In this document: in pieces, positions 9,001-63,900 of the stretch | How the letters are laid out: every line of letters begins with the position of its first letter | How positions within the stretch are numbered: position 1 is the stretch's first letter | Assembly (NCBI GenBank): GCA_965223905.1 | Contig: CBDCXV010000002.1 | Coordinates: 128,001 to 192,000 of the forward strand | Direction of reading: 5' to 3' | Length of the DNA: 64,000 nucleotides | From: Candidatus Latescibacterota bacterium | Lineage (GTDB): Bacteria; Latescibacterota; UBA2968; UBA8231 | Made by a program: the position numbers and the translations under genes | The notes under the pieces: model-generated | Databases searched by the model: none | What the model was told of the DNA's origin: nothing | What the model saw: only the letters and a program-made list of their open reading frames with translations

Positions 9001-9602
9001 CCGGCATCGAGCTCGACCGGGACGACCTGCGTATCCTGACGGACCAGGAGTTGGGATCCCTCGTTCTGCACGAGCTCGGTCACACCCTGGGCTTCGGCCT
9101 CGGGTCGTGGGAAGACCACAATCTGCTGAAGAACCCGTCCCTCGACGTGAACGGCGATCCCATCGTCCCCGCCCCCGACACCTATTTCTCCGGTGCCAAT
9201 GCGATTGCCGCCTTCAATGCCGCGGGCGGGTCGAGCTACACCGGGGCCAAGGTGCCCGTGGAGAACACCTCCGGGGGATCGGGCAGCCAGGACAGCCACT
9301 GGCGGGAGTCCGTGCTGCAGCACGAGCTCATGACGCCCCGAATCGGGGAGGCCACTTCCCACCCGCTGAGCGCGATCACCATCCAGTCGCTGGCCGACAT
9401 CGGCTACGTCGTCGACGTCACCCAGGCCGACGCCTACACCCTGCCTTCCACGACCTCTTCCTCTACCCGCTTCGCCAGGGCGGCCGGTGAAGATCAGGAG
9501 TGGCTGGTCCTGCTCAACTGCGTCGTGACCCACCCCGAGGCCGGGCCCGACGAGCCCGAGTCCATCACCCTGAATCTGCGCAGGGCCGGCGAGACGGAAT
9601 GA
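3..9602 (+). CDS. Giant modular surface protein, 5'-truncated by window (YWTD propellers, Ig/cadherin-like, FN3, SwmB-like, LRR, C-terminal M8/leishmanolysin-like Zn protease); paralog A
   Basis: Frame is open from base 3 (QRANLDGTEIEDLV). Contains YW[TS]D repeats, cadherin-like DYE/DFE motifs, FN3 (YEVQVRA.N.EG), 24-aa LRRs at about 5730-6834, and HELGH at 9069 followed by SHWR and ELMT. Colinear with 51966-63929. Confidence 0.93.
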   Translation, partial: QRANLDGTEIEDLVTTGLGTPRGLALDVSAGKLYWADSSTDKIQRANLDGSEIEDLVTEGLLSPRGLALARTAAGDNQAPELEPLADRTAATGDSLTLELTGSDPDGDALTYTASSGDEAVATAEAADSLVTLRLLAVGETAITVTARDPGGLQAIRTFTVTVQASNEPPLAVPWLYWSDARTDRIQRAELDGSDLRTLVDGLGQPRDLALDRDGGRMYWTDSGADKIQRAHLDGSRVEDLVTEGLKEPFGLALDKAGGKIYWSDWGSDKIQRSNLDGSEVEDLVATGLNEPYGLALDLSGGKLYWTDWGSDRIQRANLDGSGVEDLVTGLNQPRGIALDLGDGRMYWPDWGTDKIQRAQLDGSDVEDLVTEGLQTSQAIALDLGGGKMYWTDYGTDKIQRANLNGSEVEDLVTSGLKEPYGLTLGAGLSAQVFKVGGDSTTLNLSGRFRDPEGGALTLTVSSSNEAVATATLTDSVLTIAPVTPGQVTVSVTARDEGGRATTLPVPVTVYPTNRSPVAQTVDDRKVRIDRPARVELSTAFTDPDEGDVLTYAATSSNEAVATAAVEGSGVDIAPKSLGQTTIAVTARDPEGLEASLSFGVTVEPKPPPRPPRPPPGSSDNGGGGGPVTPPPPPPPPRPPPGPNNAPTFDEGPAATRSVAENTGANRNIQHPVRATDDDGHRLTYRLSGTDEARFAVVSGSGQLRTRSGVAYDFETTNRYKVTLEADDPYGGTDAIDVTVHVADVDEPPQAPGRPQVDPASSTSLTVTWTEPVNTGPDVHDYDVQYRKSGSFLPWPHTGPGTAATIPDLDVNTRYEVQVRAHNDEGESSWSASGFGTTSANQRPVFDESAPTRSLDENTTGTQDIGAPVRATDSENTALTYRLSGGDASSFTLDETNGQLRTRPGVAYDFETQSRYSVTVEATDEPGGGTTVTVTIELIDDDNERPDRPDRPTVTASTLNSLSIRWTAPANTGPDIHDYDVQYSEDGGTFGDWPHTGPGTSTTITSLTADTRYQVQVLARSPEGESLRSESVEARTVANQAPTFSEGSRTSRSLDENTAGTNDIGNPVTATDNDGGTLDYRLAGTDAASFDLDANDGQLETRSGETYDYEEKASYEVTVRVEDGQGGSNTIEVTINLRDETEPPEDPAAPSVSAASSTSLTVTWAEPATTGPDIDDYDIQYREGDSGSFTSWSHNSAERTATITNLTPGTSYQVQVLARNDEGASDWSSSGTGSTDPNQLPVFTDGSSATRRLDENTTGVEDVGDPVGATDPENTPLTYSLGGTDADAFAIDTRSGQLRTDRDETWDYETKSSYSVSVKAEDGHGGERTIPVFIDLNDLNEAPEFISDAAFEAAENQTFAGLVTAQDLDSGDQITDYTPTGGADRDRFEINSGGVLIFKDTPDFENPSDAGRNNQYSVVVTATGGTGGRALTAEQAITVTVTDENEEPAFTSDDAFMVHENERFVGRVTAQDVDRDDGITGYEVAGGADGSRFEIANTNELRFKESPDEKPDFERPSDSGGDNEYNVLVEAGGGTDTRKLTATQAVTVTVEDVDEPPGKPDPPTVSDETESSLRVSWTEPANTGPVITNYHVQYRHTGAYIAWSDSGAAPSRTITGLRSGRTYQVQVQAKNDEGEGPWSNPGSGTTLTAPTVSSVAFTSTPASGQNNNYKKDDVIGVTATFSEAVTVTGTPQIDLTIGSTERQADYESGSTTTQLLFQYEVQASDEDDNGASINENGLKLNNGRIFLLKNSTTVNADLAHGGRTNQSAHKVDGVAPTLTKAEVKSEELTLAYVERLDVASKPATGDFAVTVDGEARSVTAVTMHTSEVALTLASEVTPGETVTVTYTPGTNPIRDLAQNPAGVLSNLTAANRTPIGNVCSRTAQVRNEIVRQAPVSTCGAVTAEHLAEIEYLFLYGENISTLKAGDFAGLTALELLDLGSNSISSLPATLFSGLSALIALDLSDNSFTALQANRFLGLTALEDLYLDGNDLASLDANAFSGLTALIVLDLSGNSLTTLSANLFSGLSALEDLYLFENELGSLGANLFSGLTALTDLLLAGNDLGSLDASLFSGLTSLASLDLSDAGVTILPANGFSALSALETLHLDFNDLGSLDASAFSGLSALERLDLTKAGITGLPATVFSGLSALEVAHLDSNDLGGLDASLFSGLTSLRGLDLSDSEITSVPSNLFSGLTVLEVLDLGYNKLSSVDANLLSAPTELTVFSLSGNDLTTLPATLFSGLTELRWLYLRENQLSTLPDGLFSGLTALTRLRLEGNTVDPLPVNVSLEGVGSLFRAEAHTAAPFELVLPLRLANGEIDSGEESITVPQGSIQSGFLFVSRTAGTSAAVTVDLGVLPVLPASDRGYVFVRSGDLPVEVIAAEQGVEIYPAELTMPEDDSDTYTVVLTSRPTADVTVSVTVPSGADVTVNPSPLTFTADDWDTPQTVTVTSSADTDSEDDEVTLSHSVSGGYQSVTVEDVEVKVTETDVTTNSSPVFATTSFDVQENQTQVATLVATDADARDYITGYEITGGTDQALFEITSRGELSFAELPDYERPAARNNLYVVNVTATSGMGTRERTREQQILVSVTDVDEPPGPPGPPRLALPFVYSRIIAVTPGRRPPANTGPDITAWEIQYRVKDSGDFVGYTPDPEPDWTEPDWVALIRNLNRATTYEVQVAAKNDEGAGEWSPSAEIEIPNQSPVVEGSIDDVTLPVGGAVEVVSVDEAFDDPDDLVLNFTASSNNTAAAPVRVSGAEVLVDPLAVGTATVTVTASDPWGASVSTTFGADIRTPTLSAPTLSISGDLFTLEFSDDFTADETRAYEIRIRQKEPIGNWATGCFSATNDESSPKTVTVTVQDLVSDFFEPGSTYEADYGYLGEDCTGSLTGVRSAVAEATVPGTPEFDIELVYAGGAPARRVQSAFETAAARWERIIAQDIPNHRLSDNRRSLLERLYPGTTSPEVVDDLVVYVEVVEIDGLSGTLGQAGRLVWRVPSSLPIAAGIELDRDDLRILTDQELGSLVLHELGHTLGFGLGSWEDHNLLKNPSLDVNGDPIVPAPDTYFSGANAIAAFNAAGGSSYTGAKVPVENTSGGSGSQDSHWRESVLQHELMTPRIGEATSHPLSAITIQSLADIGYVVDVTQADAYTLPSTTSSSTRFARAAGEDQEWLVLLNCVVTHPEAGPDEPESITLNLRRAGETE

Positions 9603-41906: not shown

Positions 41907-41916
41907 TTCGTTTTCA

Positions 41917-42287: not shown

Positions 42288-42297
42288 CTTAATTCAT

Positions 42298-44740: not shown

Positions 44741-45118
44741 GTCAGACTGTCCCGCGCACTCTGTGCGGCAACGGTGTCCAGGCCCGGCCTTCCCGGCTTC
44801 CGGGAAGCCGAAGCAAGTCCCTCCCCAGGGACCTAAAGGACACCACAATTTTTGAAAAACATCCTCGGGACCGACCGATCCCATGGACGGGCGCACCCCG
44901 GCTTGGCGGGCAGCGCATCCCGAAGGCCAGGGCTATGTACTGACTGTTCCGATCGGTGTTGTGAATGGGTATGGACGGAGCCTTTCCGCCCCGAACCGGC
45001 TCTGCCCAACACGTAGAACCAAAATGGCCGGGTTAGACAGCAGTCTGGCTGTGAAAGTCTTCGGTTTTGTTGTAAGTTGAACACGTTTCCATCAGGGCCA
45101 ACTCACGAGGGAATCACC

Positions 45119-48100
45119 ATGGATAAACATCGAAGGATCATTTCTCAGCTTGGGCAGCTTACGCAAAAAATCGCCCATCCTACGCGGCTGGTGATCGGCG
45201 GTCTCGTGGCACTGGTATCCGGCGCCGGTGCGGAACCGCTGCTCGAAGGGCGGGTGCGGCTGTTCGCCGACCTGGGCAGCTCGCTGGGCGCCGCCACCGA
45301 TGAGAGCGGCTATTTCGCGCTGCCCCTGAACGCGCTGCGCCAGGCCGCCCCCCGGCCGGCGCACATGCAGCTGGGGCAGAACTACCCCAACCCGTTCAAT
45401 CCCTCGACGATCATCCCGTATCAGCTGCCCGCCCCGACTCGGGTGCGGCTGGAGGTGTTCAACATTCTGGGGCAGCGGGTTGCCACCCTGGTCGACGGGA
45501 AACAGGCGGCCGGTTTTCACACCGCGACATGGAACGCCACAGATGCTTCAGGGCGGGGTGTGGCAACGGGGGTGTACCTGTACCGGCTGCTGGCCGACAG
45601 GGAGCGCTTGACGCGGTCGATGGTTCTGCTGGACGGACCGGTGAGCCCGGCGGGAATAGCTCCCTCCGGTGGCGGGATCTCAGCCGGTCCGCAGGGCACC
45701 GACGGTGCAGCGGATCCATCAGGTAGGACTGCGGGAGCGATAGCATCAGGGTCGTGGGTCCCCCCCGGCGGCCAAGGGCAGGTCTACGGGTTGACGGTCA
45801 CTGGCCCGGGACTCATCCCCTATGTCGACCCGGCCTTCCGGGTGGGGGACGGTCCGGTCGAAATCCGGGTGGAAACGCTGGCCAGCTTGCCTCGCGGAAA
45901 GATGGCCGCAGACGGCCTGCTGGGAGACGTCGACGGCAACGGCCAAGTCGACCTCTCCGACGCCCTGCTGGTCGCCTCGTACAGCGAGGACCCCTCCCTT
46001 TCCATTCCCAACGGGGATATCACCCTGGGGGACGTCAACCGGGACGGTCAGGTCGATCTGGCCGACGCCCGCCTCATCGTGGCGTACCATGCGGACCCGT
46101 CCGACCTGTCGCTACCGGAAGGGATCGGCGCCCCGGTGGGGGCAGATGACGAAGGACCGCGGCTCTACTGGACGGACGCGGGCAGCGACAAGATCCAGCG
46201 GTCCCGCCTCGATGGCTCCGGGGTCGAGGACGTCGTCGACAGCGGCCTGGTCTATCCGCGCGGCCTGGCGGTGGACCTGGCGGCCTCCAAGCTGTACTGG
46301 ACCGACTACGGCACCGACAAGATCCAGCGCTCCAACCTCGACGGAACCGAGGTGGAAGACCTGGTGACCGAGGGCCTGAAGGAGCCGTTCGGTATCGCCC
46401 TCGATCTGGGCGGCGGCAAGATCTACTGGAGCGACTGGGGCACCGACAAGATCCAGCGATCCAACCTCGACGGCTCCGAAATCGAAGACCTCGTCGCCAC
46501 CGGTCTGAACGAGCCCTACGGCCTCGCCCTCGACCTGGGGGAGGGCAAGATCTACTGGACCGACTGGGGCAGCGACCGGATTCAGCGCGCCAATCTCGAC
46601 GGCTCACAAGTCGAGGACCTGGTCACCGGGCTCAACCAGCCCCGGGGGATCGCCCTCGATCTGGAAGACGGCCGCATGTACTGGCCCGACTGGGGCACGG
46701 ACAAGATCCAGCGCGCGAATCTCGACGGCTCCGAGGTGGAAGACTTGGTTACCGAGGGCCTGCGGACCTCCCAGGCGATCGCCCTCGATCTGGGCAGCGG
46801 CAAGATGTACTGGACCGACTACGGCACCGACAAGATCCAGCGGGCCAACCTCGACGGCAGCCAGGTCGAGGATCTGATCACCTCCGGTCTGAAGGAGCCG
46901 TACGGCTTGACCCTGGGCGCCGGCCTGCCGGCGCAGATCCTGAAAGTAAAGGGCGCCTCGGCGACCCTGAACCTGGCCGGCCGCTTCCGCGACCCGGAGG
47001 GGGGCGCCCTGACCCTCGCCGCCGCCTCCAGCGACGAGGCGGTCGCCGCCGCGAGTCTGGCCGACTCGGTGCTGACCATCGCGCCGGTGACCCCCGGCCG
47101 GGTGACGGTCGCGGTGACCGCCCGCGACGAGGGGGGCCGGGCTGCCACCCTGCCGGTGGCCGTGACCGTGTACCCGGCCAACCGCCCCCCGGTGGCCAAA
47201 GCCCTGGCCGACCGCAAGATCCGCATCGGCAGCCCGGACCGGGTCGAGCTGACCAGCGCCTTCACCGACCCGGACGAAACAGACGTGCTGACCTACACGG
47301 CCGCGTCGAGCAACGAGGCGGTGGCCACCGCAGCCATCGAGGGGACCGGCCTGCGCATCACCCCCAAGAGCATCGGGCAGACCGGGATCTCAGTGACCGC
47401 CCGCGACCCGAAGGAACTGGAGGCGTCACTGAGCTTCAGGGTCACCGTCGAGCCCAAGCCGCCCCCCAGGCCGCCCCGGACCCCGCCCGGCTCGGGCAGT
47501 GACGATGGTGATGGTAATGGTGATGACGGTGGTGGTCCGGTAACCCCCCCGCCCCCGACGCCTCCACCTCCACCGCCGACGCCTCCGCCTACCCCACCTC
47601 CGCCGGGTCAGAACAACGCCCCCACCTTCGACGAGAGGCCGAGCGCCACCCGCAGCGTCGCCGAAAACACCGAGGCGGGTGAAGACATCGGCAACCCGGT
47701 GACCGCGACGGATAGCGATGACGACAGGCTGACCTACAGCCTGGAGGGGACGGATGCGGGGAGTTTCACCCTCGCCTCCACCAGCGGCCAGTTGCGCACC
47801 CGCTCGGGCGCCACCTACGACTACGAGACAAAGCCCCGCTATTCTGTGTCGGTGAAAGCCGAGGACGGACATGGCGGCATTGCCGCCATTGACGTGACCA
47901 TCCACGTGGCCGACGTGAACGAACCGCCCGGGAGGCCGTCTGCCCCGTGGGTTGAGCCGGCCTCCTCCACCAGCCTGACCGTGAGCTGGACCGAGCCGGC
48001 CAACACCGGCCCCGATGTCCACGACTACGACGTGCAGTACCGCAAGAGCGGCAGCTTCCTCCCCTGGCCGCACGACGGCCCCGGTACCACTACCACGATC

Positions 48101-50344
48101 CCGGACCTGGAGGTCAACACCCGTTACGAGGTGCAGGTGCGGGCGCACAACGACGAAGGGGAGAGCGAATGGTCCGCCTCGGGCTTCGGGGGGAGCTGTT
48201 CAGAAGGCGGCGATGCCCCGACGCCGGTGGAAGTGGAAGTGACGGCGGTGCCCATCGTGGTCGAGTCCAAGACCGACAAGTACTTCGTGCTCTACGTGCG
48301 GCACGACGTGGATGGCGCGACGGTAGAGGTGCCGGTTCTGGTCAAGCGCGGCGAAGCCGGCACGACCACGCTGGCCGAGAACGTGGTGGCCCTGCCCGCA
48401 GAGCGCTACCGGGTAGAGGAGTACCTCATCGCCGACCCGGCCGACGTCGACGGCGACTGCACCGACGACCTCACCGAACTGGCAGACCCGGTGGGCATGA
48501 ACCCGGTGAACCCCGCCGCGGCCATCGAATTCAGTGACGGGGCCGTGACCGTTCCCGATCGGGAAACATTCGAGACGCTCTCCTTTAACGATTTCTTCCT
48601 CAAGTTCGTTCTGCTCGGCATGCACACCGACAGCCCGCGTCTCTACTTCATGAACACCAAAACCACTTTGAATCATAAAGAGTTCCTGGAGGTCATCGGC
48701 ATCGAGCTGGGACAGGAGGGGATGATCGAAGGCAGTCTCATGCGTCGCTGGGATCTCGTTGCCCCCGATGGCAGTCCGGGAGTCTACTGCTATTGGTGGC
48801 GACATCGCCAGCATCCGTACTCCTTCAGCGTCGTGGCGCGCGCCCATACGCTGCTTGCCGCCAGCATGCCGCTGCTCGAAGACGACCTGGCGTTCTACAT
48901 ATCGAACGACGCTCTTCTGCATTCTCAACCCGACTTGCCGTTGTACAGGGAGTCCCGAATCCCACTCGTGTTCGCCGAGGAGTTCTTCGGCGAAACCAAT
49001 TTTCTGGCGTTGAACCCGGGGGAGGGGTACGGCCTGCTGCGGGTCATGGACCCGGACGAACGTCCCCACCCGCGCGACATCGTGATCTACGAGGCGCTGC
49101 CCAACGAGCTGCCCCGCGTGGCCGGCATCATCTCCACCGTGCCCCAGACGGCGCTCTCGCATGTCAACCTGCGCGCCGTGCAGGATGGCATTCCCAACGC
49201 CTTCATCCGCAACGCCCTCGACAAGCCCTACATCGACGATCTCCTCGGCAGCTACGTCCGTTACAGAGTGACCGAGGACGGCTGGGACCTGCGCGCCGCC
49301 ACCCGCGCGGAGGTCGATGCCCACTACGAGTCTTCGCGGCCCGCCCATGACCAGGTCCCGCAACGCGACCTCGGCGTCACGACGATCGCCGCCCTCGGTG
49401 ACATCGGCTTCGATGACTGGGACGCGTTCGGCGTCAAGGCGGCCAACGTGGCGGTGCTGGGGACGCTGGGGTTTCCGGAGGGGACGGTGCCCGACGGCTT
49501 CGCGATCCCGTTCTACTTCTACGACGAGTTCATGAAGCACAACGGGTTCTACACCCGCATTGAAACCATGCTGGCCGACGAAGCTTTCCAGACGGACTTC
49601 GAAGCCCAGGCGGACTCACTCAAGAAGCCGCGCAAGGACATCGAAGACGCGGAGACGCCGGATTGGATCGTCTCGGCAATCGAGGCAATGAATGAGTCTT
49701 TCTCCGAGGGGATCAACCGCCGCTACCGGTCCAGCACCAACAACGAGGACCTGCCCGGGTTCAACGGCGCGGGGCTGTACGACTCCAAGAGCCAGAAGCC
49801 GAGCGAGGACGAGAAGGATCTCGCCAAGTCCCTCAAGGAGGTGTACGCCGGTCTGTGGAACTTCCGCGCCTTCGTCGAACGCGACTTCCATCGCATCGAT
49901 CACCTGGCGGCGGCGATGGGCATCCTGGTGCATCCCAGCTACAGGGACGAGCTGGCCAACGGCGTGGCCGTCAGCTTCGACCCCATCTACGGCAGAGCCC
50001 GACGCTACTACGTCAACACGCAGGTCGGCGAGGATCTGGTCACCAATCCCGAGGCGCACTCGGTGCCGGAGGAAGTCCTGTTGAACCCGCCTTCTGTTTC
50101 TCTCCCTTACACCGTCCTTGGGACCTCCAACCAGGTGCCGCCGGGGCAACTCCTCATGAGCCGTGACCAAATGCGCCAGTTGAGAGAACATCTCGAGGTG
50201 ATCCATAAGGAGTTCGCCGATCTGTACGACCCCGCAGACGATGAACCGTTCGCCATGGAGATCGAGTTCAAGATCACCAGCGACAACATCCTGGCGATCA
50301 AGCAGGCCCGCCCCTGGGTCTTCGGCGCCCAGGTCGATGAGTGA
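45119..50344 (+). CDS. Giant modular secreted protein (FlgD-Ig/PNPFN, dockerin-like, one YWTD propeller, Ig/cadherin, FN3) ending in a phosphohistidine + ATP-grasp dikinase module; paralog B
   Basis: Signal-like VIGGLVALVSGAGA, NYPNPFNP, GDV[DN].DG.VD x2, 6 YWTD repeats, then LSHVNLRA, FGVKAAN, YRSSTNNEDL, GAGLYDS, EIEFK, IKQARP. Confidence 0.92.
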   Translation: MDKHRRIISQLGQLTQKIAHPTRLVIGGLVALVSGAGAEPLLEGRVRLFADLGSSLGAATDESGYFALPLNALRQAAPRPAHMQLGQNYPNPFNPSTIIPYQLPAPTRVRLEVFNILGQRVATLVDGKQAAGFHTATWNATDASGRGVATGVYLYRLLADRERLTRSMVLLDGPVSPAGIAPSGGGISAGPQGTDGAADPSGRTAGAIASGSWVPPGGQGQVYGLTVTGPGLIPYVDPAFRVGDGPVEIRVETLASLPRGKMAADGLLGDVDGNGQVDLSDALLVASYSEDPSLSIPNGDITLGDVNRDGQVDLADARLIVAYHADPSDLSLPEGIGAPVGADDEGPRLYWTDAGSDKIQRSRLDGSGVEDVVDSGLVYPRGLAVDLAASKLYWTDYGTDKIQRSNLDGTEVEDLVTEGLKEPFGIALDLGGGKIYWSDWGTDKIQRSNLDGSEIEDLVATGLNEPYGLALDLGEGKIYWTDWGSDRIQRANLDGSQVEDLVTGLNQPRGIALDLEDGRMYWPDWGTDKIQRANLDGSEVEDLVTEGLRTSQAIALDLGSGKMYWTDYGTDKIQRANLDGSQVEDLITSGLKEPYGLTLGAGLPAQILKVKGASATLNLAGRFRDPEGGALTLAAASSDEAVAAASLADSVLTIAPVTPGRVTVAVTARDEGGRAATLPVAVTVYPANRPPVAKALADRKIRIGSPDRVELTSAFTDPDETDVLTYTAASSNEAVATAAIEGTGLRITPKSIGQTGISVTARDPKELEASLSFRVTVEPKPPPRPPRTPPGSGSDDGDGNGDDGGGPVTPPPPTPPPPPPTPPPTPPPPGQNNAPTFDERPSATRSVAENTEAGEDIGNPVTATDSDDDRLTYSLEGTDAGSFTLASTSGQLRTRSGATYDYETKPRYSVSVKAEDGHGGIAAIDVTIHVADVNEPPGRPSAPWVEPASSTSLTVSWTEPANTGPDVHDYDVQYRKSGSFLPWPHDGPGTTTTIPDLEVNTRYEVQVRAHNDEGESEWSASGFGGSCSEGGDAPTPVEVEVTAVPIVVESKTDKYFVLYVRHDVDGATVEVPVLVKRGEAGTTTLAENVVALPAERYRVEEYLIADPADVDGDCTDDLTELADPVGMNPVNPAAAIEFSDGAVTVPDRETFETLSFNDFFLKFVLLGMHTDSPRLYFMNTKTTLNHKEFLEVIGIELGQEGMIEGSLMRRWDLVAPDGSPGVYCYWWRHRQHPYSFSVVARAHTLLAASMPLLEDDLAFYISNDALLHSQPDLPLYRESRIPLVFAEEFFGETNFLALNPGEGYGLLRVMDPDERPHPRDIVIYEALPNELPRVAGIISTVPQTALSHVNLRAVQDGIPNAFIRNALDKPYIDDLLGSYVRYRVTEDGWDLRAATRAEVDAHYESSRPAHDQVPQRDLGVTTIAALGDIGFDDWDAFGVKAANVAVLGTLGFPEGTVPDGFAIPFYFYDEFMKHNGFYTRIETMLADEAFQTDFEAQADSLKKPRKDIEDAETPDWIVSAIEAMNESFSEGINRRYRSSTNNEDLPGFNGAGLYDSKSQKPSEDEKDLAKSLKEVYAGLWNFRAFVERDFHRIDHLAAAMGILVHPSYRDELANGVAVSFDPIYGRARRYYVNTQVGEDLVTNPEAHSVPEEVLLNPPSVSLPYTVLGTSNQVPPGQLLMSRDQMRQLREHLEVIHKEFADLYDPADDEPFAMEIEFKITSDNILAIKQARPWVFGAQVDE

Positions 50345-50790
50345 TTCCGGCGGTGAGAGAGAGCGGCGCTGCGAAGGGCACGGCGGGCGGGAGCCGGAAG
50401 CAGGAGTGCCCGGGCCGCGTCGTTCACCGATCCCACGGCTTTCGCGTTGACCCCCGCCCACGATAAGTCCCCCGTCCTTCCCGGTGAAGGCTGACGAACG
50501 GGGTGCCGTCCGAACGCATCCCGGCGCCATCCCTGACAAGCCTGCGACCATCGTCCTTTAAGTAAAGAGCACCACCGAGAGCGAGTGAGCCGCCTGACCC
50601 TCAGCCCACTCGTGGCCATCGTCCTGGCTGTCGGTGCCCCGGAAGGTGCTGCGCTCACAGCGATTTGAGCTCTGCGAGGAACTTGGCGAGTCTGCCCGTC
50701 AACCGGCCGACGTTCGAGCAGGACGGACAACTCGTCCGGTGGCCATAAGGGGGGTTTCAGTGGAGCTGTTGCTGTGTTCGGCCATGCCCC

Positions 50791-51200
50791 TCAGAACTCT
50801 TCCCCTCCCACCGTCATCAACGCTTCGGCCACCTGCCCGAAGGGCCGTCCCCCGGCGACCAGGTCGACGGCGAACGGCTGCCGCCGGCAGGGCCGGTCCG
50901 GTTCGATCGACAGCTCGCAGCTGACCTCGCAGCGGGGACCTGCCTGCAGGCTCGCCGACTCTCCCCGCCATCCTTTAGGGCCGACGAGGTCGACCTCCAG
51001 CTCTGCCCTCTGCGGCAGGGGATTGCGCACGGTCACCCTCACCCGAGCCGGTCCGGGCTCGGCAAGGTGCACGCGGTAGGGCCAGATCCAGCCTCCCCAG
51101 CTGTCGAGATCGAAGTGGATCTCCTCCTCGCCGAGGGGCGCTGCCTGCCCGCTGATCACGTCGCATTGCCCGGACAGCAGGCGCTGAAGCAGCGCCCAGG
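50791..51200 (-). pseudogene. 3' remnant of a larger gene (C-terminal Ig-like domain), duplicate of the gene ending at 63939
   Basis: FDLDSWGGWIWPYR...VTVRNP...GQVAEALMTVGGEEF; 58/62 nt identical to 63939-64000; 5' part replaced by an IS fragment. Confidence 0.65.
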
Positions 51201-51204
51201 AGGC

Positions 51205-51443: not shown

Positions 51444-51688
51444 CAGGTTCCGTTGCGATTCCTTAACATAAATTTAATTTGTCAATTCCAAGGCTCCGAC
51501 AGTCCGCTTTTGGACCCTTTGCAGCACCTGCCGGCAGGGAAATCCGCGGCCCGTCCAACTCCCCGGCAGCGGGTCCTCTAGTAGCGATTAATTTTGCTTT
51601 AGGCATAAAATAATTTCCCTTTCTTTTTTTAAAAAATCAGGGCGACGCATGAACTTCAGACACTTAACTTTATTTGCAGTGAAACAAG

Positions 51689-51960
51689 CAGTGTCCCGGT
51701 CCATGATATGGAAGGCGTCCGGTTCCGACACCAAATGGTCGAGGAGAATGACATCGTGCGGTTTTCCCCCTGTGATGCGGATACAGCGGGGAATCGCGGT
51801 TTTGCGCTGACGAAAGCGGGCGAATGCCGACACGGTACAGTTTGGGGTGTAGCGCTCGCAGGCCGGTTTCGATGTCTCGCAGGCTCTCGCGGCCGGTCAG
51901 TTGAGAAAAGACCATGCAAAGAAACTGATCCGGACAGAAACCCAGCGGAAAACGGAACCT
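51689..51960 (-). mobile_element. IS4-family transposase remnant (DUF4372 + DDE fragments)
   Basis: DQFLCMVFSQLTGRESLRDIE and IRITGGKPHDVILLD...FHIMDR; ends in ACCGGGACACTG, resembling an IS4 terminus. Confidence 0.72.
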
Positions 51961-51965
51961 GCCGC

Positions 51966-54900
51966 ATGCGGTGGGTGATCGGCTGTCTCCTGGCCCTGGC
52001 CCCGGCCGCCGGGGCCGAGCCGCTGCTGGAGGGTCGGGTGCTTCTGTCTTCGGGCGCTCCGGCGGCCGGGGCCCGGGTGCGGCTGTTCGCCGACCTGGAG
52101 CGCTCGCTGCGGGCCACCGCCGATGAGAGCGGCTATTTTGCCTTTCCCCTGAACGCCCTGCGCAAGGCCGCCCCTCTGCCGGCGCGCCTGCACCTGGGCC
52201 AGAACTACCCCAACCCGTTCAATCCCTCGACCATCATCCCGTATCAGCTGCCGGCGGCAACGCGGGTGCGGCTGGAGGTGTTCAACATCCTGGGTCAGCG
52301 GGTGGCGACCCTGGTGGACGGAGAGCGGCCGGCCGGTTTTCACACGGCGGCCTGGAATGCGACCGACGCCTCGGGCCGGGGGGTGGGCTCGGGGGTGTAC
52401 CTGTATCGGCTGCTGGGGGGCGGGGAGCGCCTGACGCGGTCGATGGTGCTGCTGGACGGGGCGGTGGGCTTGGGGGGTGGAGGGGGTTCCGCCAGGGCGG
52501 CAGCCCCGCCTCGCGGTAAGGGACCGGTCTACGGGCTGACAGTCTCGGGTCCGGGGCTGGTCCCTTACGTCGACCCGGCCTTCCGAATGGGAGGCGGGCC
52601 TGTCGAGATCCAGGTTCAGCCGCTGTCATCCCTTCCTCGCGGCAAGGTGGCCGCAGGCGGCCTGCTGGGGGACGTCAACCGGGACGGCCGGGTCGACCTC
52701 GCCGACGCCCTGCTGGTCGCCTCCTACAGCGAGGATCCGACCCTGTCCCTTGCCAACGGCGACCTCACCCTGGGGGACGTCAACCGGGACGGGCAGGTCG
52801 ATCTGGCCGACGCCCGGCTCATCGAGGCCTACCACGCCGACCCGTCCGACGCGTCGCTGCCGGAAGGGATCGGCGCCCCGGTAGGGGCCGAGGCGCGGCT
52901 CTACTGGACGGACGCGGACGGCGACCGCATTCAGCGGTCCTTCCTCGACGGCTCCGGAGTGGAGGATGTGGTCGACAGCGGCCTGGTCAACCCGCGCGGC
53001 CTGGCCGTGGATCAGGCGGCCGGCAAGCTCTACTGGACCGACTACGGCAGCGACCGCATCCAGCGGTCCAACCTCGACGGCTCCGAAGTGGAGGACCTGG
53101 TGACCACCGGTCTGCGCATCCCCTTGGGGCTGGCCCTGGACACGGTCGCGGGCAAGCTCTACTGGACGGACAACGGCAGCGACAAGATTCAGCGGTCCAA
53201 CCTCGACGGCTCCGAGGTCGAGGACCTGGTCACCGGCCTGCAGACGCCGTTGAGCCTGGCCCTGGACGCAGCCGCGGGCAAGCTCTACTGGACCGACAGC
53301 GGCACGGACAAGATTCAGCGGGCCAACCTGGACGGCAGCGAGATCGAAGACCTGGTCGCCACCGGCCTGGAGCTTCCCCGGGGCCTGGCCGTGGACGCGG
53401 CCGGCGGCAAGCTCTACTGGACGGACAACGGCAGCGACCAGATCCAACGGGCCAATCTCGACGGGTCACAGGTGGAAGAGCTGGTGAGGGAGGGACTGCA
53501 CACGCCCCGGGGCCTGGCCCTCGATCCGGAGGCGGGCAAGCTCTACTGGACGGACAGCGGCACGGGGAAGATTCAGCGGGCCAACCTCGACGGAACGGAA
53601 ATCGAAGACCTGGTGACCGAAGGCCTGCTGAGTCCGCGGGGCCTGGTCCTGGTCCGGACCGTTGCCCCCGGCAACCAGGCCCCGGTCCTGGCGCCTATAG
53701 CGGACCGGACCGCGGCGGCTGGCGATACCCTGACCCTGGTGGCAGCCGGCAGCGACCCGGACGGCGACACTCTGACCTACACGGCTTCATCAGGCAACGA
53801 GGCGGTCGTCTCTGTGGAGATAGCCGATTCCCTGGTGACGGTCTACGCGCTGTCCGCGGGCGGGGCCACGATCACCGCGACCGTCCGCGACCCGGAGGGC
53901 CTGGAAGCCGTGCAGACCTTCTCAGTGCTCGTCGGAGCCGGAGGTCTCGGGGCCGTCAACCGGCTCTACTGGACCGACGCGGAGGCGGACCGGATCCAGC
54001 GCGCAAACCTCGACGGCTCCGCTGTCGAGGACGTGATCGACAGCGGCCTGGTCAATCCGCGCGGCCTGGCCGTGGACGAGGCCGCCGGCAAGCTCTACTG
54101 GACCGACTACGGCAGCGACCGCATCCAGCGGTCCAACCTCGACGGCACCGAGGTGGAGGACCTGGTCACCGCCGGCCTGCAGATCCCGTTGGCCCTGGCC
54201 CTGGACGCGGCGGCCGGCAAGCTCTACTGGACCGACAACGGCACCAACCGCATTCAGCGATCCAACCTCGACGGTTCCGAAGTAGAGGACTTGGTCACCG
54301 GCCTGCAGACGCCGTTGGGCCTGGCCCTCGATCAGGCCGGAGGCAAGCTCTACTGGACGGACAGCGGCGCCGACAAGATCCAGCGCGCGAATCTCGACGG
54401 CACGGAAATCGAGGACCTGGTCACTGCCGGCCTGCAGATCCCCCGGGGGCTGGCCCTGGATACGGCCGGCGGCAAGCTCTACTGGGCCGACAGCGGCACC
54501 GACCGCATTCAACGGGCCAACCTCGACGGCACGGAAATCGAGGATCTCGTCACCACCGGCCTGGGCACGCCCCGGGGCCTGGCCCTCGACGTTTCTGCGG
54601 GCAAGCTCTACTGGGCCGACAGCAGCACCGACCGCATCCAGCGGTCCAACCTGGACGGCTCGGAAATCGAAGACCTGGTGACCGAGGGCCTGCTGAGCCC
54701 TCGGGGCCTGGCCCTGGCCCGGATTCCGTCCGCCGACAACCAGGCCCCCACCCTGGAGCCGCTGGCGGACCGGATGGCCGCGACCGGGGACTCGCTGACC
54801 CTCGAGCTGGCCGGCAGCGACCCGGACGGAGACGCCCTGACCTACACGGCCTCGTCCAGCCAGGAGGAAATTGCCACGGCGGAGGCGGCCGATTCCCTGG

Positions 54901-57900
54901 TCACCCTGCGTCTGCTGTCCGTAGGCCAGACCGCCATAACCGTGACCGCCGGCGACCCGGGCGGCCTGCAGGCATCCCGGACCTTCACCGTCACCGTGCA
55001 GGCCTCCAACGAGCCCCCGCTCGCCATCCCCTGGCTCTACTGGACCGACGCCCGCACCGACCGCATCCAGCGCGCCGAGCTCGACGGCAGCGGCATCCGC
55101 ACCCTGGTAAGCGGCCTCGGGCAGCCCCGCGACATCGCCCTGGACCGGGACGGCGGCCGCATGTACTGGACCGACAGCGGCAGCGACAAGATCCAGCGCG
55201 CCCACCTCGACGGCTCAAAGGTCGAAGACCTGGTGACCGAAGGGTTGAAGGAGCCGTTCGGCATCGCCCTCGATAAGGCCGGAGGCAAGATCTACTGGAG
55301 CGACTGGGGCACCGACAAGATCCAGCGGTCCAACCTCGACGGCTCCGAAATCGAAGACCTCGTCGCCACCGGTCTGAACGAGCCCTACGGCCTCGCCCTC
55401 GACCTGGGGGAAGGCAAGATCTACTGGACCGACTGGGGCAGCGACCGGATTCAGCGTGCCAATCTCGACGGCTCCCAAATCGAGGACCTGGTCATCGGCC
55501 TCAACCAGCCCCGGGGCCTCGCCCTCGACCTGGAAGGCGGCCGCATGTACTGGCCCGACTGGGGCACGGACAAGATCCAGCGCGCGAATCTCGACGGCTC
55601 CGAGGTGGAAGACTTGGTTACCGAGGGCCTGCGGACCTCCCAGGCGATCGCCCTCGATCTGGACGAGGGCAGGATGTACTGGACCGACTACGGCACCGAC
55701 AAGATCCAGCGCGCCAACCTCGATGGGAGCCAGGTCGAGGACCTGGTCACCTCCGGCCTGAAGGAGCCCTACGGCCTGGCCCTGGGGGCCGGGCTGCCGG
55801 CGCAGGTCTTCAAGGTGGAGGGGGACTCGGCGACTTTGAACCTGGCCGGCCGCTTCCGCGACCCGGAGGGGGGCGTCCTGACCCTGACCGTGTCTTCCAG
55901 CGACGAGGGGGTCGCCGCGGCGACCCTGGCCGACTCGGTGGTCACCATCGCCCCGGTGACCCCCGGCCGGGTGACGGTCTCGGTGACGGCCCGGGACGAG
56001 GGAGGCCGGGCTGCCACCCTGCCGGTGCCGGTGACCGTGTACCCAGCCAACCGCCCCCCCGTGGCCCAGACCCTGGGCGACCGCAAGATCCGCATCGACC
56101 GGCCTGCCCGGGTCGACCTGTCGACCGCCTTCACCGACCCGGACGAAGGAGACGTGCTGACCTACACCGCCATGTCGAGCAACGAGGCGGTGGCCACCGC
56201 GGCCGTCGAGGGGTCCGGGGTGAACATCGCCCCCAAGAGCCTCGGGCAGACGACCATTGCGGTGACCGCCCGCGACCCCGAAGGCCTGGAGGCGAGCCTG
56301 AGCTTCGGCGTAACCGTCGAGCCCAAACCGCCCCCCCGGCCGCCCCGGCCCCCGTCCGGCTCGGGCAGTGATGATAATGGAAATGGAAATAGTAATGACG
56401 GTGGTGGTCCGGCCCCCCCGCCCCAGCCGCCGCCGCCGCCGCCGGGTCAGAACAACGCCCCCACCTTCGACGAGGCCCCGGCGCCAACCCGCACCGTGGC
56501 CGAGAACACCCCGGCGAACCGGAACATTCAGCACCCGGTGCGCGCCACCGACCCGGACGGACACCGCCTCACCTACCGGCTCGCAGGCCCCGACGAGACC
56601 CGCTTCACCGTCGTCTCCAGCAGCGGCCAGCTGCGCACCCGGTCCGGTGTCGCCTACGATTTCGAGGTCAAGGACCGCTACGAGGTGAGGCTGGAATCCG
56701 ACGATACCTACGGCGGCACCGACGCCATCGACGTGACCGTGCACGTGGCCGACGTCGACGAACCCCCGCAGACCCCGGCCCGGCCCCGGGTCGAGCCGGG
56801 CGACTCGAAGAGCCTGACCGTGACCTGGACCGAGCCGGCCAACACCGGGCCCGAGGTCGACGGCTACGACGTCCAATATCGGACGGGCAGCGGCAGCTTC
56901 CTCCCCTGGACGCACGACGGCGACGGCACCACCGCCACGATCACGGGCCTCGACGTCAACACCCGCTACGAGGTGCAGGTGCGGGCCACCAACGACGAAG
57001 GCACGGGTGCCTGGTCGTCCTCGGGTCGCGGCGCCACCAGCACCAACCAGCGGCCGATTTTCGACGAGGGGGGCAGCGCCACGCGCAGCCTGGCCGAGAA
57101 CACGCCCGGCGGACAGGACGTCGGCAACCCCATAAGAGCGGCCGATCCCGAGGGCGGCGCGCTGACCTACCGTCTTACAGGTGGTGACACGGATCAATTC
57201 ACCATCGACTCAAGCAACGGCCAGCTGCGCACACGGACCGGCGTCGATTACGACTACGAGGCGCAGAATCGCTATTCGGTGACGGTCGAGGCACAGGACG
57301 AGCAGGGGGGCCGTGCCACCATCGCGGTGACGATTGACATAAACGACGACGACAACGAACGGCCGGAAAGACCCGACCGGCCCTCGGTGACGGCCTCGAC
57401 GCTGACGAGTCTGACCCTGCGGTGGACAGAGCCAGCCAACCCTGGGCCGCCCATCACCGATTACAACGTGCAATACCGTGAGGGCAGCAGCGGGGCCTTC
57501 ACTGCGGCGGCACACGATGGCACGGGCACGACGACGACGATTGCGAACCTGGAGTCGGACACCTCGTATGAGATTCAGGTGCAGGCCACCAGTGACGAGG
57601 GCACGAGCCAGTGGTCGCCATCGGGTAACGGGCGGACCGTCGCCAACCAGGCGCCGACGTTCAACGAAGGATCGCGCACTACGCGTCGTTTGGCCGAGAA
57701 CACGACGGGCACCCAGGACATCGGCAACCCGGTAACCGCCACCGACGGCGACGGTGGGACACTGCTCTACCACCTCGAAGGCACGGACCGGGCCTCCTTC
57801 ACTCTCGATGTCAACCAGCTTCAGACGATAGCGGGCGTCACCTACGACTACGAAGAGAAGAGCAGCTACGAGGTAACCGTACGCGTAGAAGACGGTCAGG

Positions 57901-60900
57901 GCGGCAGCAACACCATCGAGGTGACCATCAATCTGATAGACCAACAGGAACCGCCGGAGACCCCGTCAGCACCCGGCGTCTCAGCCGCCTCATCGACGAG
58001 CCTGACCGTAACCTGGATCGAGCCGACCAACACCGGTCCCGACGTCGACGACTACGACCTGCAGTACCGCGAAGGAGACAGCGGCGGCTTTACCTCCTGG
58101 ACGCACAACGGCGCGGACCTGACCGCGACCATCACGGGGCTGACCCCGGGCGCGAACTATGAGGCGCAGGTGCGAGCGAGCAACGACGAAGGCACGAGCG
58201 ACTGGTCGCCGTCGGGCACGGGAAACACCAGCGCCAATGAGCCCCCGGTCTTCACCGACGGGTCGAGCGCCACCCGCGCCCTCGACGAGAACACCACCGG
58301 CGTCGTCGACGTCGGCGATCCGGTCGGTGCCACCGACCCGGAGAACACGACCCTGGCCTACAGCCTCCAGGGCGCGGATGCCGACTCCTTCACCGTCCAC
58401 TCGAGCAGCGGTCAGCTGCGCACCCGTTCGGGGAAAACCTGGGACTACGAGACGACGTCCAACTATTCGGTGTCGGTGAAAGCCACCGACGGCCACGGCG
58501 GCGAGCGCACCATCCCGGTGTTCGTCGAGCTGAACGACCTCAACGAGCCCCCTTCGTTCACCAGCGACGCGGCTTTCCAAGCCGCCGAGAACCAGACCTT
58601 TGCCGGTCGGGTGACCGCTCAGGACCTCGACAGCGGAGACAACATCGCGACCTACACCGTCACCGGCGGCGCCGACCAGAACCTGTTCGAGGTCAACAGC
58701 GCAGGCACGCTGACCTTCAAGGACGCTCCCGACTTCGAGAACCCCTCGGACGCGGGAAGGAACAACCAGTACAACGTGGCCGTCACCGCCACCGGCGGCA
58801 CCGGAGGGCGCGCCCTGACATCGGAGCAGGCCATCACCGTCACCGTCACCGACGAGAACGAACCGCCCGTTTTCACCAGCGACGATGCCTTCAAGGTCGA
58901 TGAAAACGAGCAGATCGTCGGCCGCGTGATCGCCACCGACGTCGACAGGGACGACGGCATCACCGGCTACGAGATCACCGGCGGGGCCGACGAGGACGAG
59001 TTCGAGATCGCCGGCACCAACCAGTTGCGCTTCAAGGACGACCCCGACTTCGAGCGGCCGGCGGACTCTGGAGGCGACAACGAATACCTCGTGGAGGTCA
59101 CGGCCACCGGCGGCACGGACACCCGGGTGATGACGGGAACGCAGACTATCACCGTCGCCATCGAAGACGAGGTCGAGCCGCCCGGCAAGCCCGACCCGCC
59201 TGCGGTCAGCGACGAGACCGAGAGCAGCCTGACCGTGACCTGGACCGAGCCGGCCAACACCGGTCCCGTCATCACCAACTACCACGTGCAGTACCGCGAA
59301 GGCACAAGCGGCCCATTCACCGATTGGCCGGACACCGGTCCGACCCTGACCCGCACGATCACCGGCCTGCGCTCGGGTCAGACCTACCAAGTCCAGGTGC
59401 AGGCCAAAAACGACGAGGGGGAAGGAGCCTGGTCCAACGCGGGCAGCGGCAGGACCCTCACCGCGCCGACTGTTTCCAGCGTCGCCTTCACCTCGACACC
59501 ACCTTCGGGGCAGAACAACACCTACAAGAAGGACGACGTCATCGGCGTGACCGTGACCTTCAGCGAGGCGGTGACCGTCACCGGCACCCCCCAGGTCGAC
59601 CTGACCCTCGGCTCCACCGTGCGCCAGGCCGGCTACGAGAGCGGCTCGACCACGACGCAGCTGCTGTTCCAGTACGAGGTGCAGGCCGACGACGAGGACG
59701 ACAACGGCGCGGCCATCAACGAAAACGGGCTCAAGCTCAACAGCGGCCGCATCTTCCTGCTCAAGAACAGCGTCACCGTCAACGCCGACCTGGCCCACTC
59801 GGCCGTCGCCAACCAGTCCCGCCACAAGGTCGACGGCGTCGCCCCAACCCCCACCAAAGCGGAAGTGGATGGAACCAAGCTGACCCTGACGTACGGCGAA
59901 ACGCTCGTCAGCAATCCAAAGCCGGCCAACAGCGATTTCGAAGTGACCGTGGACAGCGAGACGCGAAGCGTTACCGCGGTGGCCGTCAGCAACACCAAGG
60001 TGACGCTCACCCTGGCCTCGGCCGTAAACACGGGGGAGACGGTGGCGCTTGCCTACACGCCGGGGACCAACCCGATCCGCGACCGGGCCCGGAACCCCGC
60101 CGGCGCCCTCAGCAACCTGGCGGTGGACAACCTCAGAAACGTCTGCAACCGCACCGCGCAGGTGCGCGACGAGATCATGGATGAAGCAGGGGTCAGCGCC
60201 TGCGGCGACGTAACCGCGGACCATCTTGCCGCGATCACCCGCCTCTCCCTGATTGACGAAAGCATCTCCACGCTGAAAGCCGGCGACTTCGCCGGGCTGA
60301 CGTCCCTGGAAGAACTCTACCTGTCAGACAACAGTATCAGCAGCCTGCCGGCGGGTATCTTCTCCGGCCTGTCGGCGCTGGAAGACCTCAGCCTCAGGCA
60401 GAACAACCTCTCCAACCTCGGAGCGAACACGTTCTCCGGACTGACCGCGCTGGTATCTCTCGATCTCTCCTTCAGCCATCTTGGCGACTTCGACCCCGGC
60501 CTGTTCTCCGGGCTGGCGTCCCTGACCCATCTCAATCTGCTGAGTGCCCGCATCAACAACCTGCCGGCGAACGGCTTCTCCGCGCTGACGGCGCTGGACA
60601 CCCTCATCCTTCAATACAACCTCCTGGGCGACCTCGACGCCAACGAGTTCTCCGGGCTGTCGACGCTCGAATACCTCGACCTGAGCAACACCCGAATCAC
60701 CAGCCTGCCGGCGGACGTCTTCTCGGGCCTGTCGTCGCTCAAACACCTCGACATGGAGTATGCCCGACTCTCCAGCCTTCCGGCGACCGTATTCTCCGGG
60801 TTGTCGTCACTCGAACACCTCAACGTGAAACGCAACGATCTCCCCAGTCTCGACCCCGGCCAGTTCTCCGGGCTGACGGCGCTGATCCATCTCGACATTT

Positions 60901-63900
60901 CCAGCATCGATCTCACCTCCGTGCACGCCGACCTCTTCTCAGGGCTGACTGAGCTCGAGTTCCTCGACCTGAGCTACAACAACAACCACCTCACCACACT
61001 GTCGGCAACCGTCTTTTCCGAACAGACGAAACTCAGAACGCTGAGCCTGAGAACCAACGACATATCGACATTGGACAGCCTTTTTGTCGGACTGACGGAG
61101 CTGAGATCGCTGGACCTGCGTCAAATGGACCTATCGACACTGGGAGACAGCGTTTTTTCCGGCCTGACCGAGCTGACCAGGCTCCAGCTTCAGTGGAACC
61201 CGGTCGACCCGCTGCCGATTACGGTTTCACTGGAATCGGCAGAGACGGACCAGTTCCGGGCCAAAGCGCACACCGGCGCGCCATTTGACGTGGTCCTGCC
61301 GTTGCGGCTCTCCAACGGCGAGATCGACGGCGGCGAATCGAGCATCACCATCCCCCAGGGCAGTGTCGAGAGCGAGCCTCTCTCGGTCTCCCGTACCGCC
61401 GGGACCAGGGCGGCGGTCACTGTCGATCTCGGGACGCTGCCGGCCCTCCCGTCGGGCGACAACGGCTACGAGTTGGTGAGGTCCGCCGACCTGCCGCTGG
61501 TAGTCATCGCCGCCGAGAAAGGCGTGGAGATCTACCCCACGGAACTGACCCTGCCGGAGGACGACAGCGACACCTACACGGTGGTGCTGACCATGGAGCC
61601 CACCGCTGACGTGACGGTGACCGTGACCGTGCCGTCGGGCGCCGATGTCACGGTGAACCCATCGCCGCTGACTTTCACGACCGACAACTGGGATACGCCG
61701 CAGACCGTGACGGTGAGTACCAGCGCCGACACCGACACCGATGACGACGAGGTCACCCTGACCCACACGGTGAGCGGCGGCGGCTACCAGGGAGTCACCG
61801 CCGATGACGTGGAGGTGACTGTCACGGAGACCGCGGTCAGCACCAACAGCCCGCCGTCCATCTTCCACAATTCCTGGACCGTGGATGAGAACTTCAGCGG
61901 GCACATTTCCATAGTGGGAACGGATCCGGATGACAGGGACTACATCACCGGGTACGAGATCACCGGGGGCCGCGACCGGGCCCTGTTCGAGATCGCCACC
62001 CGGGGCGGACGGGGCGAGCTGACCTTCGTGGATGTACCCGACTTCGAACGTCCGGCAGGCACCAGCAACCGGAATGAGATCGTCGTCACCGTCACCAGCG
62101 GCATGGGCGCCCGAAAGCGGACCGGGCAGCGGCAGATTGCCATCAACGTGAACGACGTGGACGAGCCGCCGGGCCGGCCGCCGGCGCCCGGATTGAGTCT
62201 CCCCGGCGGCTCTCCCACCATCGCGGTGAGCATGGGAGGCCGGATCCCGCCGGTGAATACCGGACCGGACATCAGTGGCTGGGGAATAGGATACCGCGAG
62301 AAGGACAGCGGCGACTTCATCACCTCCACGCACACCTCCTCAACCTTGGACGCGCGGATCGACAATCTGACCAAAGGCGTTACCTACGAGGTGCAGGTAC
62401 AGGCGAAGAACGACGAAGGGGACAGCGAGTGGTCACCCTCGGCGGAGAAAGAGCTCCCCAACAAGCCGCCGGTCGTCGTCGGCTCCTTCGACGATCTCAC
62501 GCTGGCGGTGGGAGGCGCCGTTGAGATCGTGTCCGCAGACGGGGTCTTCAGCAGCCAGGACGGCGACCTGCTGACGTATTCGGCGTCGTCCGGCAATACG
62601 GCTGCCGCTACCGTTCAGCTGATCGGTACCAAGGTCCTCGTGGATCCCGGGTCGGCCGGCAGTGCGACCATCACCGTGACCGCGAGCGATCCATACGGTG
62701 CGTCCGACTCGGAGACGTTCGACGTTACGGTGCAGACGCCGACCCTTTCGGCGCCCACACTGACCATCACCGGCAACCTCTTCACGCTGTCATTCACGGA
62801 TGACTTCGCGGCCGAGGAAACCCGGGCCTACCATGTACGCATCCGCCAGAAGACGAACCATGGACCCTGGGCGACAGGGTGCCATACCGAGACCAATGAC
62901 GAGGATTCCCAGCAGTCCATTTCGGTATCGCTGGAGGACGCGGTCTCCGATTTCTTCGAACCGGGCACCACGTATGAGGCGGACTACGGATACCTGGGGG
63001 CGGACTGCGACGGCAGCCTGACGGGTTCGCGGTCGGCGACCGGCGAGGTGACCACGTCCGGGACGGCATCCTTCGATATCGACCTTGTCTTCGTCGGCAG
63101 CATCTCGTCGACAAACCGGTCCCATATCGAAGACGCCGTCGAGCGCTGGGAGGAGATCATCACCGGTGATCTTCCCAACCATCAGTTAACCAGCAGGAAT
63201 CGCGAGTACCTGAACCGGCGTTATCCAGGTACTACCGCCCCCGAGGTCGTGGACGATATCGTGATCTACGTGAGAACCGGTTACGTGTTGGGGCTCGCAG
63301 CGGCTACGTCCTTGTCGCACCGGACTCCCTCCTCCCTGCCGTTCGCATCCGAAATAGTACTCGGCACCAGCAACGTGATCAATTACCTCGTCGCTCTGCA
63401 CGAGATAGGCCACGCGCTGGGATTCGGAACCTATCCGTGGACAGCTCACAACCTGTTGAAGGACCCCTCCCGAGGACCATTCTCAACCATCATCACTCCC
63501 TCTCCCGACACCTACTTCTCGGGCGCGAAGGCGGTTGCCGCCTTCGACGCGGCGGGCGGGACGAGCTACACCGGCACCAAGGTGCCTGTGGAGAACGGCT
63601 CCAGCACGCGGTACCGACCCAGCCTGGACAGCCACTGGCGGCAATCCGTCATACAAAGCGAACTGATGACGCCAGGGTTTTCCGATCCCGGTCCGCTGAG
63701 CGCGATCACCATCCAGTCGATGGCCGACCTGGGCTACACCGTCGACGTCACCCAGGCCGACGCCTACACCCTGCCGTCTTCCATTACCGCGAAACGGGTG
63801 GCCTGGGCGGGCGGGGACGACAAGGAGGAGGCGGTCCTGCTCAACTGCGTCCTCGATCACCACGAGACCGGGCCCGAGGAGCCCGAGCCGATCACCCTGA

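Follow-up and report, generated by a model that had tools for sequence, protein, structure and literature searches.

A putative histidine-relay dikinase head on an exported, adhesin-like protein of a Candidatus Latescibacterota bacterium

To our knowledge, dikinases of the pyruvate phosphate dikinase (PPDK), PEP synthase (PEPS), rifampin phosphotransferase (RPH) and glucan water dikinase (GWD) types are intracellular enzymes only. What, then, would such a module do at the tip of an exported protein? The question is raised by a 64,000-nucleotide stretch of a Candidatus Latescibacterota genome (assembly GCA_965223905.1, contig CBDCXV010000002.1, positions 128,001 to 192,000; hereafter the window), in which a 1755-codon open reading frame (ORF) at 45077..50344 of the forward strand encodes a secreted-looking, adhesin-like giant protein. 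Its final 717 residues, encoded by the last 2.15 kb (window 48191–50341), form the module that we term the head, and an earlier note on this DNA had taken them for a GWD-like, extracellular dikinase. All motifs quoted in that note are present, including the His codon, CAT at 49160–49162, and the PEP/pyruvate barrel is absent, as had been claimed: by Pfam, applied to the protein and to the module, the protein ends right after its ATP-grasp domain. What is observed is the domain content and its order, an intact ATP site, a conserved histidine, export signals and the spread of the family. The best explanation, to which we give a probability of roughly 0.55, is that the head is a surface-displayed, three-site histidine-relay dikinase, the catalytic head of a stalk protein. 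An apparently intact dikinase behind export signals, on adhesin stalks and across unrelated phyla, is unexpected.

Searched against 1.84 billion representative proteins, the 717-residue head gave 3989 matches at E ≤ 0.001 and 1209 representatives at E ≤ 1e-30. Over the best 150 matches, all 717 residues align as one block at 45–89% identity; this block is N-terminal in 48 proteins, in the middle of 54, C-terminal in 11, nearly alone in 7 and partial in 30, and two of the 150 carry it twice. For 120 relatives from a word-indexed library, PF01326 was the sole Pfam family on the block, and the other families printed for them were of adhesin type (FN3, cadherin, Calx-beta, PKD, SLH and others). 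The sole name given by a source was 'PEP/pyruvate-binding domain-containing protein [Candidatus Poriferisodalis sp.]', and a full-text literature search found no paper on this head family. Judged by these alignments, the head is one conserved unit of a large, unnamed exported family.

The C-terminal part of the head (module residues 401–717; 49391..50341, + strand) is a PPDK_N-type ATP-grasp nucleotide-binding domain and the best conserved part of the module, with 102 of 317 columns at ≥95% conservation; a profile search of solved chains with an alignment of the head (A1) returned ATP-grasp matches only. In RPH, Lys22 is essential, Arg117 and Thr136 hold the alpha-phosphate and Glu297 holds Mg (PMC4844700). 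These residues align with K416, R513, S532 and E690/E692 of the head, which are kept in 179, 180, 179 and 169/178 of 180 family modules, respectively, and the closing Q-x-R-P motif is retained as well (Q705 in 180/180, R707 in 179/180). Because the phosphate and Mg ligands and this motif are kept in nearly all 180 modules, the domain looks catalytically intact. Between the two head copies of this genome, described below, the ratio of nonsynonymous to synonymous divergence (dN/dS) is 0.33–0.40 in the His and ATP-grasp parts. This conservation bears on two alternatives. If the head were a binding module without catalysis, a pseudo-enzyme forming the tip of an adhesin, the adhesin-type stalk beneath it would fit; across 180 relatives, however, the catalytic His and the ligands of the ATP phosphates are almost fully conserved, which, together with the dN/dS values, argues against this, and we hold it to be extremely improbable. 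The head might also work without ATP outside the cell, its His and N-terminal domains shuttling phosphate between phosphorylated donors and acceptors, or the whole enzyme being loaded with phosphate before export. There is a precedent in HpeH, the swivel-plus-substrate-domain component of a two-component dikinase, which moves phosphate from 4-phosphoacetophenone to acetovanillone alone (PMC12167813). However, an ATP-grasp domain that is the best conserved part of the module and keeps all ATP-site residues points to continued nucleotide use, and such a reading seems very unlikely.

Upstream of the ATP-grasp domain lies the His segment (residues 263–400; 48977..49390, + strand), which we presume, from sequence comparison and modelling, to be a phosphate-carrying swivel domain. 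His324 (codon 49160–49162) is kept in 178 of 180 modules and falls within the most conserved 40 residues of the head; over the segment, 34 of 138 columns reach ≥95% conservation. A swivel fold around this histidine has less behind it than the earlier note had supposed. A model of residues 271–382 has seven strands and three helices, with the His directly before the helix at 325–332, and a profile–profile (HH) comparison with seven PEPS-type swivels gave a local score of 18.0 (E 0.023), a value that 1 of 100 shuffles attained; extended to 94 columns, the alignment pairs His with His, G-I-I-T with I-I-T and G-v-P with G-v-P. Several results weigh against a histidine relay at this point. The PEPS-type match was marginal locally and gave nothing in global mode. 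PF00391 had no match in the module at E ≤ 10, nor in any of 22 aligned members (0/22) at the same threshold, and a genome-wide search with it matched PPDK and a PtsI-like gene only, not the module. In an HH comparison with 29 PPDK/enzyme I (EI) swivel domains from the same phylum, His again fell on His, with no signal: the score was 11.7 versus 11.6 for shuffles, and 42 of 100 column-shuffled controls scored as high. The model itself is of moderate confidence in the His region, with predicted local distance difference test (pLDDT) values of 52–93, mostly 70–93, and below 50 at residues 321–323. Whole-model structure searches were filled by ATP-grasp proteins and do not bear on the His domain. 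The swivel fold is thus weakly shown.

The remaining 262 residues would form the acceptor side. A model based on an alignment of 40 diverse N-terminal parts (A2; 29–64% identical to the query) has a pLDDT of 93.9 and a predicted template modelling score of 0.91 and consists of three pieces: an Ig-like beta-sandwich at about module residues 13–79, an acidic loop of the D-x-D-x-D-G type with four invariant Asp, which we take to be a calcium site, and an alpha/beta domain at about residues 124–266 (pLDDT 94). The sandwich and the loop, here DxDxDGDCxDD, make up residues 1–107 (48191..48511, + strand), and the alpha/beta domain, presumed to hold the acceptor-binding site, is assigned to residues 108–262 (48512..48976, + strand). 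Cys3 and Cys90 are both present in 142 of 172 modules, both absent in 19 and found singly in 11; because a disulfide would be expected to give this pattern of joint presence or absence, the two probably form one. The alpha/beta domain is the most variable part of the head (entropy 2.2 bits versus 1.1–1.3; 6 of 155 columns at ≥95%), and within it H162 (177/180), R256 (169/180), S255 and N155 are conserved. By its model, it has no clear solved relative. An ESM Atlas search with the N-terminal part returned no usable match, and the only row obtained with A2 against solved chains, multicystatin 4lzi, was dismissed as chance (summed E 0.0014, each of three repeats E 45–80). No stand-alone N-terminal domain was found among the 120 short A2 matches listed; each of these breaks off somewhere within the module, at no common position and in several cases with a frame-shifted tail, and they were rejected as fragments.

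The genome carries a second copy of the head, in a 2458-aa protein on contig 11 (C11). The stalks of the two proteins are ~95% identical over aa 440–1090 (synonymous divergence, dS, 0.10) and their ATP-grasp domains 86–100% identical in most alignment windows (dS 0.16), whereas a patch of the alpha/beta domain is merely 54–60% identical (dS 0.63, dN/dS 0.55), with a third-position GC content of 0.75 versus 0.86–0.90. The two proteins are mosaics between which segments have been exchanged, and their heads probably have different binding targets. The earlier note had placed the substrate-binding part at about 48200–49000; the region is indeed variable, both in entropy and between the two copies, and its alpha/beta domain is probably the acceptor site. 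A toxin-immunity reading is spoken against by the absence of a shared ORF downstream of the two paralogues.

How far does the likeness to GWD extend? In potato GWD1, a central domain of 20 helices (aa 483–926, PDB 9HA9) is followed by a His domain (931–1050, with H992) and an ATP domain (1069–1387) (PMC13553574). The order of acceptor part, His segment and ATP-grasp domain in the head agrees with this arrangement, as had been proposed, and the accompanying statement that RPH has its ATP-grasp domain first is confirmed by PMC4844700: RPH runs from ATP-grasp domain through substrate domain to a C-terminal His domain, whereas in the head the His precedes the ATP-grasp domain. With GWD1 and phosphoglucan water dikinase (PWD; EC 2.7.9.4 and 2.7.9.5), the head shares an acceptor-side domain, a His domain and a C-terminal PPDK_N ATP-grasp domain in the same order. 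With GWD1 it further shares a similar His-to-ATP-domain spacing and, comparing our model with the published description rather than by superposition, what appears to be a His domain of seven strands and three helices with the His starting a short helix; in GWD1 the catalytic His is exposed on that helix (PMC13553574). The GWD1 His domain is distantly like those of RPH and PPDK and has conserved V989 and L990 before H992 (PMC13553574), and L322-S-H324 of the head has the same L-x-H spacing as L990/H992. In both proteins, the ATP domain is nearer to RPH than to PPDK (PMC13553574 for GWD1, a model search for the head).

The differences from GWD lie mainly on the acceptor side. Instead of the 444-residue, 20-helix bundle described for GWD1, the head has 262 residues of beta-sandwich and alpha/beta domain; the N-terminal model lacks an all-helical centre, which excludes a GWD-type central domain. 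It also lacks the carbohydrate-binding modules (CBMs) of these enzymes, CBM45 or CBM20, the latter being the starch-binding module of PWD. Pfam found no CBM in the 1755-aa protein, nor in the module at E ≤ 10, and among the accessions printed for the 120 relatives none is known to us as a CBM family. The proposal of a glycan acceptor is therefore not sustained, by the missing CBMs in protein, module and relatives and by an N-terminal part unlike the GWD helices; of the GWD-like module, the three-part order stands, and the CBM and the 20-helix central domain are missing. The GWD catalytic domain did not turn up in searches of solved chains, and a literature search for GWD motif strings yielded nothing relevant. 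GWD is plastidial, whereas the head is exported on an adhesin stalk. Set against GWD by description, the head appears to work like a GWD-type dikinase and is not a member of the GWD family. Other relatives differ in further ways. The acceptor domains of RPH-Lm (PDB 5HV1, 5FBS), HpeHI and BsPPS are unrelated by sequence to that of the head, and these enzymes are cytoplasmic; the NCBIfam model NF041857 scores the head protein at 42 bits versus a cut-off of 999. In contrast to PEP synthase and PPDK (PDB 2OLS, 9DAE, 1DIK), the head has no PEP/pyruvate TIM barrel, and its domain order is permuted. The genome's own ordinary PPDK sits elsewhere (C2:337185–338219). A new acceptor domain would be an addition to an enzyme class relevant for the enzymatic phosphorylation of polymers and small molecules.

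Several features of the sequence, independent of one another, support the prediction that the protein leaves the cell. Translation probably starts at the ATG at 45119, which has GAGGGA 9 nt before it and opens a signal-peptide-like hydrophobic leader (aa 15–52 of the ORF; 45119..45232, + strand) with a predicted cut after AGA and before EPLLEGR. In all 13 proteins of the genome that share the N-terminal 300 residues (13/13), A-x-A and EP[LV][LV]EGRV come after a hydrophobic stretch, and stand-alone relatives of the head start with typical signal peptides. Among 22 aligned relatives, Pfam found a type IX secretion system (T9SS) tail in 4, the Bacteroidota-type ones, of which one passes the NCBIfam cut-off and one lies just below it; in three Atlas clusters of PPDK_N proteins, 62–88% of members have such a tail. 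In the explanation that we favour, the head is exported and displayed at the cell surface on its stalk. The target itself lacks a C-terminal T9SS sorting domain: its FlgD_ig/T9SS-sorting-domain-like beta domain lies near the N-terminus, at aa 103–179 (45383..45613, + strand; PF13860 E 4e-8; TIGR04183 29 bits versus a cut-off of 23), and the protein ends with the ATP-grasp domain. This position differs from that described for T9SS tails. Of the 109 copies of the FlgD_ig/Por_Secre_tail domain in the genome, 78 lie no more than 25 aa from the stop; 14 long proteins, among them the target and its two giant neighbours, have the domain near the N-terminus, directly behind the leader. Between this domain and the head lies the stalk (45920..48178, + strand), in which Pfam and NCBIfam place a dockerin (282–335), six YWTD repeats (362–615), Ig-like Big_9 domains, a proline-rich linker, a cadherin domain (860–933) and an FN3 domain (958–1034); PPDK_N follows at 1451–1746 (E 2.3e-21).

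The same leader and stalk carry other heads in this genome. The two neighbouring giants, at 3..9602 (+; 3199 aa, open at the 5′ end) and 51708..63929 (+; 4073 aa), share them, have additional leucine-rich-repeat blocks and end in leishmanolysin M8 heads with intact HExxH motifs (HELGH and HEIGH). A 3107-aa stalk paralogue (C9:822928–832251) ends in a eukaryote-type protein-arginine deiminase (PAD), with PF03068 at E 5.6e-79 over profile positions 2–394 of 395 and the C-terminal Cys motif GAIHCGTN; a PAD of this type is unusual in bacteria. Since M8 and PAD heads act on proteins outside the cell, they lend circumstantial support, by analogy, to an extracellular and host-directed dikinase head, although neither needs a nucleotide cofactor. 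Dikinase, leishmanolysin and arginine deiminase tips on one stalk family would amount to a modular kit of host-directed surface enzymes.

In the mechanism that we propose, the ATP-grasp domain (401–717) would bind Mg-ATP, and His324, on the small middle domain, would attack the beta-phosphate; AMP would be released and the gamma-phosphate passed to water as Pi. The His domain would then turn to the alpha/beta domain (108–262) and hand its phosphate to an acceptor bound there, while the YWTD/cadherin/FN3 stalk would keep the head off the cell, in the host matrix. The leishmanolysin and PAD heads on the same stalk suggest, by analogy, a host or matrix macromolecule as acceptor. We infer the swivel motion, the catalysis, the extracellular ATP donor and the acceptor.

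The scarcity of ATP outside cells is the weak point of any extracellular reading, and the surroundings of the gene add to it. Over 80 loci, no conserved neighbour gene was found that might supply ATP or use the products, the best non-self cluster occurring in 6. One cluster of this genome (C11:1302471–1306977), between two stalk-family genes, encodes an Omp85 protein (E 4e-17), a 558-aa protein without a Pfam match and a TLC-type ATP/ADP carrier (E 1.5e-19). It would suit a head that acts where ATP is available, in a diderm periplasm fed by such a carrier, or in host cells or phagosomes after uptake. A TLC-type carrier is present in just 1 of 5 other module-bearing genomes, a count on which it was rejected as a general ATP-supply partner and which tells against the surface dikinase too. 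The T9SS tails of Bacteroidota relatives take cargo across the outer membrane, and many carriers of the module are Dehalococcoidia and Acidimicrobiia, which probably have no outer membrane; an ATP-rich site of action is accordingly quite unlikely. RPH has a Km of ~8 micromolar ATP (PMC4844700). The canals of a freshwater sponge respond to ATP and to ADP, but not to AMP (PMC11883242), so that the first two serve as extracellular signals in sponges. One may speculate that ATP is present in the niche and that its conversion to AMP without free ADP could matter to a host. An exported family of this kind implies usable ATP in the symbionts' extracellular niche, or chemistry not yet known for this fold.

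The sponge responses would also suit a head that mainly destroys extracellular ATP, running the dikinase half-reaction with water as the final acceptor (ATP to AMP and 2 Pi, with no free ADP) so as to quench host purinergic signals or to harvest phosphate, its N-terminal domain only regulating or tethering. RPH variants unable to phosphorylate rifampin retain ATP pyrophosphatase activity (PMC4844700), and the module is frequent in sponge-symbiont lineages. Yet the N-terminal domain is always present, has near-invariant H162 and R256 and varies like a specificity domain, which would be unexpected for a simple ATPase; the 5′-nucleotidase family PF02872 was not found in this 93.6%-complete genome; and members in Saprospiraceae, Flavobacteriaceae and Verrucomicrobiota clusters are not evidently host-bound. 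On this balance we think ATP destruction unlikely to be the main role, and return to the relay dikinase.

Where the family occurs was asked in a scan of one genome per species, which found at least 558 coding stretches of the module. Read from the titles of the best 80 of these, the nearest carrier is Latescibacterota (76% identity), and many are Dehalococcoidia and Acidimicrobiia, including Candidatus Poriferisodalis; Thermodesulfobacteriota, Acidobacteriota, Poribacteria, Planctomycetota, Anaerolineae and Bacteroidota are also represented. Many carriers among these 80 stretches and the 120 relatives belong to known sponge-symbiont lineages. In a quick maximum-likelihood tree of 79 modules, the two copies from this genome and the Latescibacterota copy form a group (support 100) nested in a Dehalococcoidia clade, and well-supported branches force at least 12 label changes for Chloroflexota and 8 for Actinomycetota. 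Gene transfer best explains this interleaving of phyla, to which paralogy and errors of binning may contribute. Carriers are scattered: among 151 genomes sampled from the phylum, 15 have the module, and these fall in 3 of 14 families; in the class to which one Dehalococcoidia carrier belongs, 12 of 201 genomes have it. In two sponge metatranscriptome runs, 20 and 29 contigs fell on the head at 90–99% likeness (for example, one of 158 nt with 1 difference at 49388–49545), a weak hint at its transcription, given the low shares of the runs (0.06) and that relatives may be the source of the contigs or carried-over DNA may be involved. Over the head, contigs of the coded runs X1 and X3 add up to a depth in the thousands, far more than over the N-terminal part of the stalk, and variants and loose ends abound; these samples therefore appear to contain a range of many related heads, each from a different organism.

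Taken furthest, these data would describe sponge symbionts of many phyla that share, by gene transfer, a surface enzyme converting host extracellular ATP to AMP without ADP, the nucleotide that triggers full sponge contraction, and placing the beta-phosphate on a host matrix molecule, the target being picked by an exchangeable acceptor domain. In all its parts together this picture is a long shot. If true, it would be the first dikinase active outside a cell, and would let symbionts mute purinergic alarm signals and leave a mark on their surroundings. Through this family it can be tested how symbionts alter or sense the matrix of their host.

Some further features of the locus and of the stalk family may be recorded. 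A promoter/terminator scan and an Rfam search gave no match. Directly upstream of the target lies a low-GC island (~38000–44000; GC 0.45–0.51 versus 0.64 genome-wide) that holds two ABC-transporter genes, a 541-aa ORF without family and a TPR protein. Elsewhere in the genome, three stalk genes (C9:417352, C9:837973 and C10:96616) are cut at the identical point of a YWTD repeat and continue with an identical odd C-terminal peptide and then a common sequence of 1.3–1.4 kb, 91–98% identical; a small mobile element may lie behind this, or the duplication of a broken gene. The 1.36-kb spacer 3′ of the target (window 50345–51707) holds repeats that recur in the genome: one of 351 nt has a second copy just beyond the window end, after the next giant (C2:191937–192287), one of 259 nt is found again next to a C1 stalk gene, and one of 243 nt occurs at six places. 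These repeats are possible recombination substrates for the stalk family.

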